Source of the DNA: a virus | Strand: one strand, 5' to 3' | Length of the DNA: 64,000 nt | IMG/VR virus record: IMGVR_UViG_3300044629_000431 | Location: 82,478-146,477 of that record | Notes under the pieces: model-generated | What the model was told of the DNA's origin: nothing | Seen by the model: the letters and a program-made list of their open reading frames with translations, nothing else | The model's database searches: none | Made by a program: the position numbers and the translations under genes | Part shown: positions 16,669-37,341 of the stretch, one piece after another | Position numbering within the stretch: position 1 is the first letter of the stretch | Layout: the number at the start of each line of letters is the position of its first letter

Positions 16669-16752
16669 TAGGGCGAGCGGGAATCGAACCCGCACGGGAA
16701 TACTCCCAGCAGATTTTAAGTCTGATACGGCTACCAGTTACGTCACCGCCCC
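16669..16752 (-). tRNA. trnL: tRNA-Leu(UAA)
   Basis: Cloverleaf with long variable arm; anticodon loop CT-TAA-AA; GGTTCGATTCC T-arm. Confidence 0.92.
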
Positions 16753-16764
16753 ATTTATGAGACC

Positions 16765-16793
16765 ATTATAACTCAGAAAGTCTTTATGGTCAA
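16765..16793 (-). promoter_or_regulatory. sigma70-type promoter for tRNA-Leu
   Basis: TTGACC-N17-TATAAT. Confidence 0.8.
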
Positions 16794-16797
16794 GAAT

Positions 16798-16875
16798 GCC
16801 GTGTGTTTGTGAGACTAAATCAAAACCGTTTGATAGATGCCCCACTGGATTCTATCATAAGTTTTGAACCACGGC
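16798..16875 (-). ncRNA. Unassigned structured ~78-nt RNA element immediately 3' of tRNA-CAU
   Basis: Nested stems GCCGTG/CACGGC, TCAAAAC/GTTTTGA, TGATAGA/TCTATCA. Confidence 0.5.
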
Positions 16876-16878
16876 AAG

Positions 16879-16951
16879 TGCTGGTTGTCGGGATCGAACC
16901 GACCTGTCTTGCCTTATGAGGGCAGTGCTTTCTCCAGAGAGCTAAACCAGC
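16879..16951 (-). tRNA. tRNA with CAU anticodon (Met or Ile2)
   Basis: GCTGGTT/AACCAGC acceptor stem; CT-CAT-AA loop; GGTTCGATCCC T-arm. Confidence 0.88.
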
Positions 16952-17362
16952 GTTTGCAGAAATTCTTTCCAACTATCACCATAGTGTATCATATGATGGC
17001 AGTTGTGGCAAAGAAGATCGCATTTATCAACTTCTTCTTTGATAAGTTCCCATTTTCTATTTGCGAAACTTCTCCCGTCAAGTTTTAGTTTTTTTTTGGG
17101 AAGGATCTCTATGGTGAAAACATAAAGTTGCTGGATTATCTTCACCACATTTTTGACACTTACCACCTTTATATTGAAGTGCCTCCCATTTATTGGAATA
17201 TGCACGTTCTTTTTGTTCAGTATAAGTGTTTCTGTTCATAACAAAAGGATCATTTTTATAACGCCACTTTTGACGGCAGGTTTCATTACAATAAAGTTTT
17301 GCTCTTCCACCTTTTCTTGTGTGTTGTAGAACTTCTTTCCCACACGCTTTACAATTAATCAT
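16942..17362 (-). pseudogene. HNH (homing) endonuclease split by a frameshift in an A9 run
   Basis: Frame 1: CKACG...C.KCG...FHHRDPSQKK; frame 2: KLKLD...KCDLLCHNCHHMIH. Removing one A from 17089-17097 fuses the two frames. Confidence 0.75.
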
Positions 17363-17409
17363 TTATGTTATGAACTTATACATACACCTATTTAGATAAA
17401 GGCGTATTT

Positions 17410-17490
17410 TGGGCGAGGGTGTCTGACCACGATAATCTACGATTCAGCAGAGGGGACCCTTCGTTTAATACAACGTTCCTTGTTGTACCC
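17410..17490 (-). ncRNA. Unassigned structured ~81-nt RNA element immediately 3' of tRNA-Ile
   Basis: Stems GGG/CCC, TACAAC/GTTGTA, CGA(A)GGGT/ACCCTCG, TCTG/CAGA. Confidence 0.45.
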
Positions 17491-17492
17491 GA

Positions 17493-17564
17493 TAGGAACA
17501 CTGGGAGTTGAACCCAGACTAACCCGTTATAAGCAGGCCGCTCTAACCATTAAGCTATGCTCCC
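17493..17564 (-). tRNA. trnI: tRNA-Ile(UAU)
   Basis: GGGAGCA/TGTTCCT acceptor; anticodon loop CT-TAT-AA; GGTTCAACTCC T-arm. Confidence 0.9.
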
Positions 17565-36314: not shown

Positions 36315-36341
36315 AAAAAAAGGAGGGGATCAACCCCTCCT
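36315..36341 (-). terminator. Rho-independent terminator of the microprotein operon
   Basis: AGGAGGGG-TTGAT-CCCCTCCT followed by a U-tract. Confidence 0.85.
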
Positions 36342-36497
36342 GTTAAATATTGGTTCCATATCTAAAACTTGTTCAAACCACTCTTTAAGATGTATGCGGT
36401 AACAAGACCAATACTTACACCCACGATATGTAAGTTGATAACAGGCAGGTTCTCTGCTGTCCTTATCCATATCGTCCCAGTGGTAATGGTAATCCAC
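36330..36497 (-). CDS. Microprotein (55 aa) with DUF4278-like LTYRG.KY motif
   Basis: GTG start overlapping the previous stop; MDYHYHWDDMDKDSREPACYQLTYRGCKYWSCYR... Confidence 0.55.
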   Translation of the reverse strand: MDYHYHWDDMDKDSREPACYQLTYRGCKYWSCYRIHLKEWFEQVLDMEPIFNRRG

Positions 36498-36580
36498 TAT
36501 TTAAAAAGAAATTGAATATAAAGCGACAATAAAGTAATTACAACCGCACAACCTGCGGTAATTTGTAATACTGCGAACAT
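36497..36580 (-). CDS. Hydrophobic microprotein (27 aa, single TM helix)
   Basis: MFAVLQITAGCAVVITLLSLYIQFLFK; TGATG-coupled. Confidence 0.55.
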   Translation of the reverse strand: MFAVLQITAGCAVVITLLSLYIQFLFK

Positions 36581-36678
36581 CACTTTGCTCCAACGAGTTG
36601 TGCTAGTTGTGCTTGGTGACGGCGCTCTTCTTTTTGTTTTTGTTCTTTGATAAGTTGTAGGAAGTTTAGCTTTTGCAT
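36580..36678 (-). CDS. Gln/Lys-rich microprotein (32 aa)
   Basis: MQKLNFLQLIKEQKQKEERRHQAQLAQLVGAK; TGATG-coupled at both ends. Confidence 0.6.
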   Translation of the reverse strand: MQKLNFLQLIKEQKQKEERRHQAQLAQLVGAK

Positions 36679-36815
36679 CACTTATGCCCCTCCTTTACGA
36701 ACTTAACACCACGATAGGTTTCGTTGTATTGTTGGGCTTGTTGTTGCATTTGCTGTTGGTATTCGATACGCTTTTGGGTATCGTATTCAACACCTCTGTA
36801 AACGACTTTAGACAT
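36678..36815 (-). CDS. DUF4278-family microprotein (45 aa), Gln-rich
   Basis: MSKVVYRGVEYDTQKRIEYQQQMQQQAQQYNETYRGVKFVKEGHK; two YRGV motifs; strong SD AAGGAG. Confidence 0.8.
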   Translation of the reverse strand: MSKVVYRGVEYDTQKRIEYQQQMQQQAQQYNETYRGVKFVKEGHK

Positions 36816-36847
36816 TAGGTTTTCTCCTTAGTTTTTTAGGTTAAAGA

Positions 36848-37017
36848 GCGTTCCTTCAGTCGGCTTTTGCGTCTATTTTACACTCCTTTGGAGCAATCTG
36901 TTTGATTTCCCAAATCAAGTCATTTTTTGCTTGTTTTGGAATATCAACTTTATAAACTCTTCCAATCATTAACTGTGCTTGTAAACAAGTTAATAAGAGT
37001 GTTTCCATAGATGAACG
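36848..37017 (-). ncRNA. glnA (glutamine-I) riboswitch-like aptamer 2, with a 130-nt P2 loop
   Basis: CGTTC-A-TCTAT[...]ATAGA-CGCAAAAGCCGACTGAAG-GAACG-C. Confidence 0.7.
36856..37008 (-). CDS. Microprotein (50 aa) encoded inside aptamer 2
   Basis: METLLLTCLQAQLMIGRVYKVDIPKQAKNDLIWEIKQIAPKECKIDAKAD. Confidence 0.65.
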   Translation of the reverse strand: METLLLTCLQAQLMIGRVYKVDIPKQAKNDLIWEIKQIAPKECKIDAKAD

Positions 37018-37020
37018 ATC

Positions 37021-37271
37021 CGTTCCGAGTCGGCTTACTTCCGTCCTATTCAGTTTAGCACTTAAGTCTCACAACATCCTTTCGGAGTTCTGATAGCAAT
37101 CGGTCTTCTTTTCTTTGGTCTACTACATCGTCGTTTTTAACGATGTCCATTAGTTCCCACGCTGCGTCACAACTTATTGTCACTTGATTTGATTTGGCAA
37201 GTTGAGGCGTAGAGATAGAAAGAAGTGGAACCCATGCTAAAAGCAAAAGTGCCTTAGACATAGGATGAACG
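37021..37271 (-). ncRNA. glnA (glutamine-I) riboswitch-like aptamer 1, with a 210-nt P2 loop
   Basis: CGTTC-A-TCCTAT[...]ATAGGA-CGGAAGTAAGCCGACTCG-GAACG. Confidence 0.7.
37055..37261 (-). CDS. Small protein (68 aa, signal-peptide-like N-terminus) encoded inside aptamer 1
   Basis: ORF track; two Cys with spacing similar to 36856..37008. Confidence 0.65.
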   Translation of the reverse strand: MSKALLLLAWVPLLSISTPQLAKSNQVTISCDAAWELMDIVKNDDVVDQRKEDRLLSELRKDVVRLKC

Positions 37272-37281
37272 TTAGAGGGAT

Positions 37282-37341
37282 ATTATACCTCTATTCTTCT
37301 TATATATACAAGTTTTATGTTGAAACAGTAACAATAGATAC
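37282..37341 (-). promoter_or_regulatory. sigma70 promoter (TTGTAT-N18-TATAAT) with upstream NtcA-type box
   Basis: TATAAT at 37287-37282; GTA-N8-TAC at 37328-37341 (TGTATCTATTGTTAC). Confidence 0.6.

Follow-up and report, generated by a model that had tools for sequence, protein, structure and literature searches.

Glutamine-riboswitch-type hairpins closed around complete small genes in the leader of a cyanophage operon

Introduction

Riboswitch aptamers are usually regarded as compact non-coding domains. The closest described relative of the leader analyzed here is the glutamine-I riboswitch (RF01739; Synechocystis gifB/IF17 leader), in which glutamine binding turns on gifB translation via a linchpin and competition for the ribosome-binding site (RBS), and for which a downstream DUF4278 gene is a typical context (PMC6212724). 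Our locus shares with it P1 (CGUUC/GAACG), the bulged A, the UC/GA opening of P2, the CGGAAGUA element (in unit 1 only), the GAAG element (in unit 2 only) and the linchpin, as well as the DUF4278 gene downstream and a linchpin base that also belongs to the anti-RBS strand (PMC6212724). However, the P2 loops of glutamine-I RNAs are 4-20 nt long, whereas those found here comprise 210 and 130 nt and are complete genes. Furthermore, in the fold favored below a helix between the two units would replace the P3 hairpin, and the cores would be nested rather than separate. The second related family, glutamine-II (Downstream-peptide motif, RF01704, marine picocyanobacteria), has the CGUUCA, CGCA and GGAACG core elements and the DUF4278-type genes in common with this locus, and the CGCA junction variant of our leader recalls it; in contrast, glutamine-II possesses a different 3' pseudoknot and no enclosed genes. 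In a survey published in 2017, cyanophage genomes yielded no more than two glutamine aptamers, and riboswitch use by phages was judged to be rare (PMC5473149). Our literature searches found no published description of genes inside a glutamine aptamer. Thus, glnA aptamer elements and their DUF4278 context are known already, and hairpins of the glutamine-riboswitch type that close around complete small genes appear to be new.

Results

Layout of the leader

The window, i.e., the whole 64,000-nt stretch of viral DNA that was analyzed, carries the leader on its minus strand (37271-36848; all features below are on this strand), where two glnA-type half-sites each flank one small gene. Unit 1 starts with CGTTC (37271-37267) and a single A. 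This first CGUUC is invariant in relatives and is the predicted 5' strand of the outer P1; its partner is 36853-36849 in the nested model discussed below, and RNAfold pairs the same two strands at the minimum free energy (MFE) of the window leader. The 5' strand of P2a (TCCTAT, UCCUAU in the RNA; 37260-37265) includes the first two bases of the ORF1 start codon (AU), and the 210-nt loop between TCCTAT and ATAGGA holds ORF1. The 3' strand of P2a (ATAGGA/AUAGGA, 37044-37049) is non-coding, starts 5 nt past the ORF1 stop and is identical in 31 of 31 loci, with a variable spacer next to it. The 3' core of unit 1 reads CGGAAGTAAGCCGACTCG (37043-37026). It contains the putative outer-core junction CGGAAGUA (37036-37043), which agrees with the RF01739 consensus and includes the AGUA loop-E strand and the linchpin base G37041, and the 5' strand of helix H, AGCCGACU (37028-37035), whose partner according to covariation is 36865-36858 and which would be the P3 hairpin of unit 1 in a side-by-side drawing. 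GAACG (37021-37025) closes the unit and is the 5' strand of the inner P1 hairpin in the nested model and the MFE structure; the linker GAT (GAU, 37018-37020) would be its loop, with G37020 as a candidate partner of C36869.

Unit 2 begins with CGTTC (CGUUC, 37013-37017), the predicted 3' strand of the inner P1 hairpin, again followed by a single A; in all 80 loci fetched with the ORF2 protein, this CGUUC immediately precedes UCUAUG. The 5' strand of P2b (TCTAT/UCUAU, 37007-37011) likewise takes in the first two bases (AU) of the start codon of ORF2, the 130-nt loop between TCTAT and ATAGA is coding (ORF2), and the 3' strand (ATAGA/AUAGA, 36872-36876), which covaries and has frozen synonymous sites, is read as the codons AUA GAc. 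The 3' core, CGCAAAAGCCGACTGAAG (36871-36854), comprises the putative inner-core junction CGCAAA (36866-36871; no AGUA strand, C36869 as candidate partner of G37020), the 3' strand of helix H, AGCCGACU (36858-36865), whose final U is the first base of the ORF2 stop UGA, and GAAG (36854-36857), the proposed loop-E 3' strand of the outer core, which agrees with the RF01739 consensus GAAGGAACG. The last GAACG (36849-36853) is the 3' strand of the outer P1 in the nested model and in the MFE structure.

The sequence thus confirms the two tandem glnA-type units of the initial annotation and their 3-nt linker (GAT, 37020-37018). It equally bears out that both start codons lie within P2 5' strands (each ATG overlaps UCCUAU or UCUAU), that ORF1 fills loop 1 (its stop is 5 nt ahead of ATAGGA) and that ORF2 ends inside the 3' strand of the aptamer (TGA 36858-36856, in the 3' core).

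Relation to the glutamine riboswitch families

Rfam revealed no glutamine aptamer in the window at gathering or permissive thresholds, and RF01739 had no match in the whole phage record, in line with the expectation that covariance-model scans would miss the leader: the sensor is invisible to them because its hairpins hold genes. A PreQ1 match over the Shine-Dalgarno (SD) region was at chance level (17.5 bits, cut-off 39) and was rejected.

Relatives with canonical short loops do match RF01739 (35.6, 34.2, 33.5 and 28.9 bits; gathering cut-off 35 bits), which upholds the proposed glnA-type identity. Against RF01704, short-loop relatives score 20.6 and 24.6 bits, below the cut-off of 33 bits. 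It had been suggested that a glnA match should appear once the loops are removed, and natural short forms served for this comparison. For unit 1 the match was found: locus L037, with the exact unit-1 halves of the window and a 9-nt loop, reaches 38.1 bits (E 6.7e-7). Unit 2 did not reach the cut-off: naturally short-looped relatives that carry the window's 3' core score 33.3-33.5 bits, just under 35 (S-PM2, 33.3 bits). As a search of viral contigs turned up no natural unit 2 that combines a short loop with the window's UCUAU/AUAGA stem, the unit-2 comparison is based on S-PM2 and S-CREM1, which share the 3' core with the window and have a different P2. The RF01739 hallmarks present are P1 CGUUC/GAACG, P2 after a single A with opening U-A and C-G pairs and covarying distal pairs, and the linchpin 3' of P1; the short P2 hairpin loop and the local P3 hairpin are absent. 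Given the RF01739 matches of its canonical relatives, the leader is homologous to glnA-type glutamine aptamers.

Long-range P2 pairing

Relatives of the locus support real pairing of the distant P2 strands, as originally proposed, by covariation, slid controls and compensatory changes. At P2 positions 3-5 of unit 2, three to four types of pair occur, and pairing is kept in 58-66 of the 66 unique combinations of strands (pair 3: CG 34, UA 23, UG 9; pair 4: CG 24, AU 22, UA 11, UG 7), and the mean stem of 5.88 bp compares with 3.89 ± 0.18 bp for shuffled partners (0 of 5000 shuffles). Pairs 3-6 are paired in 88.6% of cases in register and in 30-63% when slid. The split P2 of unit 1 covaries as well; covariation spans 144-214 nt in unit 2 and about 220-260 nt in unit 1, and compensatory changes are seen even between 96%-identical loci. 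Note that locus counts and strand combinations, here and below, are not phylogenetically independent. The P2b covariation derives from marine relatives fetched by the 3' core; in the freshwater clade close to the window (RNAalifold, 100 unit-2 sequences), P1 and P2b are invariant and no covariation was detected. The expected covariation of P1 and P2 is therefore present for P2 of both units but not for P1, which never varies. Codon shuffling of the ORF interiors lowers the predicted P2 probability of unit 2 from 0.74 to 0.16, which lends P2 weak model-based support, as the shuffle also deletes extra P2-adjacent pairs.

Each 5' strand matches its own distant partner, as had been noted: cis stems average 5.4 and 6.3 bp, but cross stems only 3.0 and 2.7 bp. 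This bears on the possibility of a circularly permuted aptamer with a cross P2, formed solely by the contiguous piece where the units join (the 3' half of unit 1 and the 5' half of unit 2), with the outer halves as relics. The GAACG-GAU-CGUUC hairpin can indeed form locally and is present in the MFE structure, and by BLAST against phages the junction piece is the best-conserved stretch. Nevertheless, in 36 of 38 doubly split combinations the cross stems are no longer than 3 conserved bp, the outer halves are invariant, the synonymous sites of the 3' core are frozen, and the outermost 3' base takes part in the linchpin covariation. With cis stems longer than cross stems, we rejected this permuted fold, which we consider extremely improbable.

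Covariation favors nested cores over side-by-side aptamers

Tandem glnA RNAs are conventionally read as independent neighboring aptamers, each with its own P1, P3 hairpin and linchpin, and the initial annotation adopted this view. In favor of it, units taken singly align to RF01739, and unit 2 folded by itself yields cis P1 and P2. However, mismatches disrupt cis P3 pairing in 11 of 19 short elements and 28-29 of 122 core combinations, and the cis linchpin is lost in 40 of 122. The inter-unit partners pair in 121-122 of 122 and do so with three types of pair. Moreover, short-core variants drop 3 nt in both units jointly (5 of 7 non-standard combinations are 20+20 nt) and form a perfect 5-bp inter-unit helix. 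The claim of two self-contained aptamers was thus not borne out, the inter-unit helix and the linchpin covariation favoring a nested fold, and the side-by-side arrangement appears very improbable.

In the nested fold, the leader would form one interlaced structure. The outer junction would consist of the outer P1 (first CGUUC with last GAACG), P2a and the shared helix H, made of both 'P3' segments and carrying the loop-E strands AGUA and GAAG; the inner junction would consist of helix H, the inner P1 hairpin (GAACG-GAU-CGUUC) and P2b. Covariation at the discriminating positions favors this fold over the side-by-side arrangement: among the 19 short elements, for which RNAalifold predicts the nested fold, it keeps 19 of 19 at each discriminating pair, whereas the side-by-side fold breaks 11 and 3. 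Across the 122 combinations, an inter-unit helix pair (U37028 with A36865 in the window) is AU in 90, UA in 25, CG in 3, GU in 3 and mismatched in 1. The X1-T2 linchpin pair (G37041-C36848 in the window) is Watson-Crick in all 122 (CG 82, GC 40), and X1 and T2 co-change in 16 of 16 close pairs. For X2-T1 (window candidates C36869 and G37020), 118 of the 122 combinations have C-G. The inter-unit helix and the linchpin pair are in this way supported by covariation. The P1 strands CGUUC and GAACG, two copies each, are invariant in all relatives, and the assignment of outer and inner P1, being without covariation, is favored by nesting, the linchpin partner and energy models; in the whole-leader MFE of the window (z -3.58), both the outer and the inner P1 form, as does P2b.

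CGGAAGUA occurs in unit 1 only and GAAG in unit 2 only, and the two are opposed only in the nested fold. The inner core carries CGCAAA and CG where the consensus has CGGAAGUA and GAAG. This composition could speak for a real fold that does not sense glutamine, being ligand-independent (translational coupling, RNA stability, timing) or responding to another metabolite: neither core follows the validated consensus throughout (CGCAAA for CGGAAGUA in the inner core, CUCG for GAAG after unit 1), and unit-2 types fall under the Rfam cut-off. Yet the nested outer core is complete in consensus elements (CGGAAGUA, GAAG, P1, A bulge, linchpin), the natural short form scores above the cut-off at 38.1 bits, and the downstream gene is the typical one for a glutamine riboswitch (PMC6212724), so that we regard a fold that does not sense glutamine as quite improbable.

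The enclosed genes

ORF1 (68 aa, 37055-37261) fills the P2a loop and encodes a hydrophobic N-terminus followed by a two-Cys domain; ORF2 (50 aa, 36856-37008) encodes a two-Cys helical hairpin (AlphaFold model, pLDDT 82.9). That both are protein-coding genes, as had been assumed, is corroborated by homologues (23 distinct ones for ORF1, 186 protein clusters for ORF2), by conservation and by differences per codon position in ORF2 (0.28, 0.15, 0.44). A profile comparison with broad alignments links the ORF families of loop 1 and loop 2 at E 4e-8, and one with narrow alignments links them weakly (P 0.0044); judging by these profiles, ORF1 and ORF2 are distant paralogues. No function could be assigned to the enclosed proteins with Pfam, PHROGs, the ESM Atlas or BFVD.

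The last codons of ORF2 (I-D-A-K-A-D-stop) are supplied by three RNA elements: P2b (3' strand), the inner junction and helix H. Its codons overlapping the core are GAC in 190 cases and GAT in none (ORF interior: GAC 104, GAT 291), and the core-overlapping Ile codons are ATA in 99 of 99 (interior: 131 of 889, the other 758 being other Ile codons), showing that a constraint at the RNA level acts within the coding sequence over the core. In 184 of 190 cases the UGA stop is found 13 nt inside the core. Inside ORF2, RNAalifold detected no conserved structure among 100 close, freshwater-type unit-2 sequences. P2 takes in the first base of the AUG in 184 of 196 loci for unit 2 and in 54 of 82 for unit 1, the other 28 unit-1 start codons being just beyond the contiguous stem. 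SD-like motifs precede the enclosed start codons in only 7 of 196 (unit 2) and 0 of 82 (unit 1) loci, but are found ahead of the downstream gene in 226 of 229 relatives. Start codons that lie in P2 and lack an SD fit a start-codon clamp.

Promoter and downstream operon

A -10 hexamer TATAAT (37282-37287), present in all relatives, is located 10 nt 5' of the first CGTTC, in the loop of an inverted repeat AGAGG/CCTCT (37292-37274) whose arms covary. The -35-like hexamer of the window is TTGTAT (37306-37311); most relatives have TTGACT, followed after 17-18 nt by TATAAT at the equivalent site, and the weaker TTGTAT copy is not among the listed matches of a scan. Directly after the last GAACG, an anti-SD strand CUCUUUA (36842-36848), whose C36848 doubles as the linchpin partner of G37041, precedes the SD UAAGGAG (36824-36830) of a DUF4278-type gene (45 aa, 36678-36815). 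The predicted anti-SD:SD hairpin has 7 bp, includes C36848 and is weak (-4.6 kcal/mol, z -1.27). The placement of the leader upstream of a DUF4278/gifB-like gene was corroborated by PHROG 5049 (E 1.7e-10); the match to Pfam PF14105 (E 0.0011) is below the cut-off. Three predicted overlapping small ORFs (33, 28 and 55 aa; 36330-36681) belong to the same transcription unit, which ends at an intrinsic terminator (36315-36341; 8-bp stem with 6 G-C pairs, then a T run).

Distribution in phages

The sensor is common in T4-like cyanophages, and hundreds of related phages share the gene-enclosing layout. Split units are present in 80 of 80 loci fetched with the ORF2 protein alone and in 76 of 116 (approximately two thirds) fetched with the 3' core alone, a recurrence far beyond chance. 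The linkers measure 3 nt (157 loci), 4 nt (93) or 20-21 nt (23).

All four combinations of loop 1 and loop 2 exist (short/split 159, split/split 86, short/short 27, split/short 14), and the enclosed genes must therefore be dispensable for the sensor. Among cultured phages, both loops are split in P-SSM4, one in S-SSM7 and none in S-PM2 and S-CREM1. The same fold and sensor could accordingly carry the genes as mere passengers, the P2 loops being the only insertion-tolerant sites and the ORFs riding on an early promoter with no meaningful glutamine gating. The four layouts agree with this, as do the occurrence of one ORF family in loop 1 of some phages and loop 2 of others, and the same downstream platform in phages with both loops short (e.g., S-PM2 and S-CREM1). 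A pure passenger, however, should come with a spacer and a ribosome site of its own; instead, the start codon is nearly always in or adjoining the P2 5' strand and lacks the SD that is strong at the neighboring gene, and the ORFs extend to the final loop base, with the stop codon taken from the core. We therefore consider the passenger explanation rather unlikely.

Discussion

The best explanation of these observations, and one that we consider probable, is that the 430-nt leader of this early cyanophage micro-operon acts as one sensor of the glutamine-riboswitch type, in which two three-way junctions are nested, and gates genes. P2a and P2b each close, by long-range pairing, around a complete small gene. 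L-glutamine would stabilize the nested fold, and formation of the linchpin G37041-C36848 would take C36848 from the anti-SD:SD hairpin; its release would switch the DUF4278 operon on, as proposed for gifB. The folded state would also bury the SD-less starts of ORF1 and ORF2, which would then be translated mainly at low glutamine. A ribosome reading ORF2 would unwind P2b, the inner junction and helix H and stop inside the core, and translation and sensing would therefore be mutually exclusive on one RNA. In this reading, the binding of glutamine and the gating of ORF1 and ORF2 are inferences. The complete scheme, in which one glutamine-dependent fold of ~430 nt shuts two enclosed SD-less starts and opens the DUF4278 ribosome site, ribosomes reset the sensor, and this is the common form in marine and freshwater T4-like cyanophages, is more tentative, and we put it at somewhat below an even chance.

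If glutamine indeed gates the enclosed genes, the leader would be a compact viral readout of host nitrogen status, through which the virus selects one of two small-protein sets encoded on the same transcript. Such a leader would exemplify reciprocal, translation-coupled nitrogen sensing and offer a natural example of an aptamer in which translating ribosomes compete with ligand sensing. With two nested cores, the way 'tandem' glnA RNAs are generally drawn would also need to be reconsidered. P-SSM4, S-SSM7, S-PM2 and S-CREM1 represent ready-made natural controls in culture, with both, one or no loops split.

Several known systems resemble parts of this arrangement. In the tandem glycine riboswitch, two ligand-sensor domains on one leader are in mutual contact and act as one unit, and here too two sensor units per leader are proposed to work as one. 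The glycine aptamers are, however, complete and interact by tertiary contacts, whereas the units described here, which hold genes, would have secondary-structure helices in common. Group I and group II introns carry homing-endonuclease or maturase ORFs in peripheral loops, with a helix closed around an ORF that can move between loops. The leader likewise is a structured RNA that tolerates a whole gene in a terminal loop. In contrast to these self-splicing ribozymes, whose mobile ORFs have a mobility function, the host RNA is here a predicted metabolite sensor, and the start and stop codons of the ORFs belong to the sensor helices and core. In the Mg2+ leaders of Salmonella mgtA and mgtCBR (mgtL, mgtM, mgtP) and in classical attenuators, translation of a leader ORF competes with alternative RNA folds; these ORFs encode short regulatory peptides in the expression platform, whereas those in the cyanophage leader encode conserved folded proteins of 50-70 aa within the ligand-binding domain. 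Finally, in the RNA phage MS2, pairing over long distances across coding sequence governs the translation of another gene, since ribosomes translating the coat gene break it and open the replicase start; this interaction involves no ligand-binding domain.

Architecture of the leader and its operon

The two gene-enclosing half-site pairs that the initial annotation had described at 37271-36848 (minus strand) are present in the window, with the sequence and both ORFs as it gave them. Unit 1, read on the minus strand from position 37271, consists of CGTTC, A, TCCTAT, 210 nt, ATAGGA, CGGAAGTAAGCCGACTCG and GAACG; a GAT linker connects it to unit 2, which consists of CGTTC, A, TCTAT, 130 nt, ATAGA, CGCAAAAGCCGACTGAAG, GAACG and C and reaches to 36848. 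According to the ORF listing, ORF1 (68 aa; 37261-37055, minus strand) lies within the 210-nt loop of unit 1. ORF2 (50 aa; 37008-36856, minus strand) includes the 130 nt of unit 2 and has its stop codon TGA within the 3' core. Downstream of unit 2, a strong Shine-Dalgarno (SD) sequence precedes a DUF4278-type gene (45 aa; 36815-36678, minus strand; Pfam E 0.0011, PHROG 5049 E 1.7e-10), which is followed by three small ORFs of 33, 28 and 55 aa (within 36330-36815, minus strand) with overlapping starts and stops. These four genes look like a translationally coupled micro-operon, and a strong intrinsic terminator (36341-36315, minus strand) closes the transcription unit.

On the same strand, a TATAAT box precedes the first CGTTC by 10 nt. 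This -10 box lies in the loop of an inverted repeat (37274-37292, minus strand), found at the same place in the related loci L005-L121, and the arms of the repeat covary among relatives (AGAGG/CCTCT, GGGAG/CTCCC, GGGG/CCCC, GGTC/GACC); the repeat represents either an RNA hairpin, formed in read-through transcripts, or a property of these early promoters at the level of DNA. The source record is a 146-kb IMG/VR entry of a T4-like cyanophage with relatives in Kyanoviridae. The window also carries a cluster of three tRNA genes (16669-17564, minus strand; 63.9, 47.5 and 46.0 bits).

The enclosed ORFs

Both enclosed ORFs are real genes. ORF2 is represented by 186 protein clusters in a large protein database and has relatives on 372 viral contigs; indels in this family are multiples of three, and pairwise differences at codon positions 1, 2 and 3 amount to 0.28, 0.15 and 0.44. 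AlphaFold predicts with confidence a helix-turn-helix hairpin (pLDDT 82.9) that has one invariant Cys per end; its structural relatives are only uncharacterised cyanophage proteins. ORF1 is conserved as well, and broad alignments relate the ORF family of loop 1 to that of loop 2 (hhalign probability 95%, E 4e-8). In phages P-SSM4 and S-SSM7 the enclosed ORFs are annotated genes (PSSM4_169.2, PSSM4_169.3, SSSM7_289). One ORF subfamily occupies loop 1 in some phages and loop 2 in others: the cassette has switched hairpins.

A near-identical gene (MP.L.YLSLLA.HEPVHWTIKC...) is found in both loop settings (loci L233 and L290 versus L242 and L293). Its span is 196 nt in either loop; the loop-1 copies end with ...GRK at the core UAA, the loop-2 copies with ...DAKAD at UGA.

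Relationship to glutamine riboswitches

Rfam detected no glutamine aptamer in the window at any threshold, as had been anticipated for covariance-model scans. The proposed glnA ancestry is borne out by cultured relatives, which possess the same leader with short hairpins: both loops are short in S-CREM1 (annotated glnA riboswitch) and S-PM2, and in DSL-LC02, DSL-LC03 and S-SRM01 unit 1 is short and an ORF2 homologue splits unit 2. The short units of these phages match RF01739 (cut-off 35 bits) at 35.6, 34.2, 33.5 and 28.9 bits. Removal of the loops, suggested earlier as a check, exists in natural short forms and succeeded for one unit: the related locus L037, in which a 9-nt loop joins halves identical to those of unit 1 in the window, reaches 38.1 bits (E 6.7e-7), and unit 2 of S-PM2, with the 3' core as in the window, remains slightly below the cut-off (33.3 bits). 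The viral collection yielded no unit 2 in which the UCUAU/AUAGA stem closes a short loop.

The A-rich SD region (36822-36860, minus strand) gives a weak PreQ1-I match (17.5 bits, cut-off 39, E 0.89), seen also in L037 (18.2 bits); base composition probably accounts for it.

Long-range pairing of the P2 strands

Among close freshwater relatives of the window, the P2 strands are invariant and therefore uninformative on pairing, for or against. Marine relatives with other P2 stems (UCCUUA/UAAGGA, UCCUCA/UGAGGA, UCCCA/UGGGA, UCUCAUG/CAUGGGA and others) were obtained by fetching loci on the 3' core alone. Among 66 unique strand combinations of unit 2, pair 3 was never broken (C-G 34, U-A 23, U-G 9), pair 4 was broken twice (C-G 24, A-U 22, U-A 11, U-G 7), and pair 5 was formed in 58. 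The mean stem was 5.88 bp in unit 2 and 5.18 bp in unit 1, versus 3.89 ± 0.18 and 3.90 ± 0.23 bp with shuffled partners (0/5000 each). In register, pairs 3-6 are formed in 88.6% of unit-2 and 82.8% of unit-1 cases, compared with 29-63% for slid partners. Compensatory double changes separate loci that are 96% identical (U-A to C-G between L242 and L293; G-C to A-U between L211 and L274). In doubly split leaders, cis stems average 5.4 and 6.3 bp and cross stems 3.0 and 2.7 bp. Thus, the distant P2 strands pair, as originally claimed, and each 5' strand prefers its own partner. The covariation expected in homologues was found for P2 in the marine relatives, but not for P1, which never varies.

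A nested double core

The initial annotation had drawn two tandem aptamers 3 nt apart. Covariation favours a single nested fold, in which an outer P1, P2a and P2b are combined with an inter-unit helix and an inner P1 hairpin. In 122 unique combinations of standard-length cores, the third base of the unit-1 CG_AAGUA always has its pairing partner in the base that follows the final GAACG (C-G 82, G-C 40; this linchpin is G37041-C36848 in the window), whereas its same-unit partner fails in 40. The cis closing pair of each "P3" hairpin fails in 28-29 combinations, and the unit-2 5' segment is paired with the unit-1 3' segment in 121 (A-U 90, U-A 25, C-G 3, G-U 3). Variants with shortened cores have lost 3 nt in both units together, which leads to perfect 5-bp inter-unit helices (AGUCG/CGGCU, AGUCG/CGACU, AGUCA/UGACU). 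Where loci share at least 88% identity in the ORF2 interior, the linchpin bases co-change in 16/16 cases, including L144 and L153 (97% identical).

For 19 natural short/short elements, RNAalifold predicted all five helices of the nested fold unaided. Both discriminating pairs of this fold are intact in 19/19 (A-U 10, U-A 8, G-C 1; C-G 16, G-C 3); in the same alignment, a side-by-side arrangement would have each P3 pair broken in 11/19 and each linchpin in 3/19, and was rejected. Three of these helices (outer P1, the inner hairpin GAACG-GAU-CGUUC, and P2b) are present in the RNAfold minimum free energy structure of the 428-nt window leader (z -3.58). In the nested fold, the outer junction possesses all consensus elements of the glutamine aptamer, AGUA facing GAAG included, and the inner junction is a circularly permuted variant that lacks loop E and has the linker as its cap. 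Since P1 is invariant, the assignment of outer and inner P1 is inferred.

The shortened-core subgroup (20 + 20 nt) comprises L014, L019, L032, L070 and L083, with compensatory changes in the 5-bp duplex. L039, L093 and ~21 more loci have a stretch of 20-21 nt in place of the 3-4 nt inter-unit linker; it can fold into a small hairpin of its own (ACCUA-CUUA-UAGGU), which would extend the inner P1 cap.

Selection on the aptamer halves

The aptamer halves are under RNA-level selection. In 80 loci retrieved solely by the ORF2 N-terminal peptide, CGTTCATCT stands immediately 5' of ATG in 80/80, despite the variable linker preceding it, and the 3' half is likewise present in 80/80. Synonymous sites are frozen in the ORF2 codons overlapping the core, where third-position diversity drops from 0.44 to 0.12: Asp is encoded by GAC 190 times and never by GAT (104 and 291 in the ORF interior), Ala by GCA only (190), Lys by AAA 162 and AAG 3 times. 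The P2-forming Ile codon is ATA in 99 cases and never ATT or ATC (interior, ATA 131 vs 758). The 3' P2 strand of unit 1, non-coding in the window, is invariant in 31/31 loci, and the adjoining spacer is variable.

Distribution

A 2017 survey listed just two glutamine aptamers in cyanophage genomes (PMC5473149). In the literature covered, we found no description of genes inside glutamine aptamers or of a nested double core. The core-2 motif is present in 3 of 185,579 species genomes. The contigs in question (L325-L327) come from an Acetobacteraceae MAG (3.8 kb), a Dehalococcoidia MAG (5.3 kb) and a Prochlorococcus single-cell genome (189,106 nt, the length also of a motif-bearing IMG/VR viral record, L232); all three are probably phage DNA binned with cells.

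Possible regulatory role

The contiguous P2 stem includes the A of the start codon AUG in 184/196 unique loop-2 and 54/82 unique loop-1 loci. An SD-like motif precedes the enclosed ORFs in only 7/196 (loop 2) and 0/82 (loop 1) cases, versus 226/229 for the downstream gene. The ORF2 stop UGA is situated 13 nt into the core in 184/190, and marine loop-1 ORFs terminate at the UAA of GAAGUAAG. Folding would therefore be expected to conceal the start codons of both ORF1 and ORF2, and a ribosome translating ORF2 would have to melt the inner junction and the shared helix as well as P2b. According to the main rival explanation, the enclosed genes are passengers and the loops no more than permissive sites for them; consistent with this, all four loop-1/loop-2 layouts exist (short/split 159, split/split 86, short/short 27, split/short 14). 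If the fold does control the enclosed genes, these and the downstream genes would respond oppositely to glutamine.

The linchpin pair of the Synechocystis riboswitch forms upon glutamine binding, and this binding is proposed to melt an anti-RBS helix and to switch gifB on (PMC6212724). In the window, C36848 has two roles: besides being the covarying linchpin partner of G37041, it starts the anti-SD strand CUCUUUA, which pairs with UAAGGAG. This double role suggests that the DUF4278 operon, by analogy with gifB, may likewise be switched on by a glutamine-dependent linchpin at C36848.
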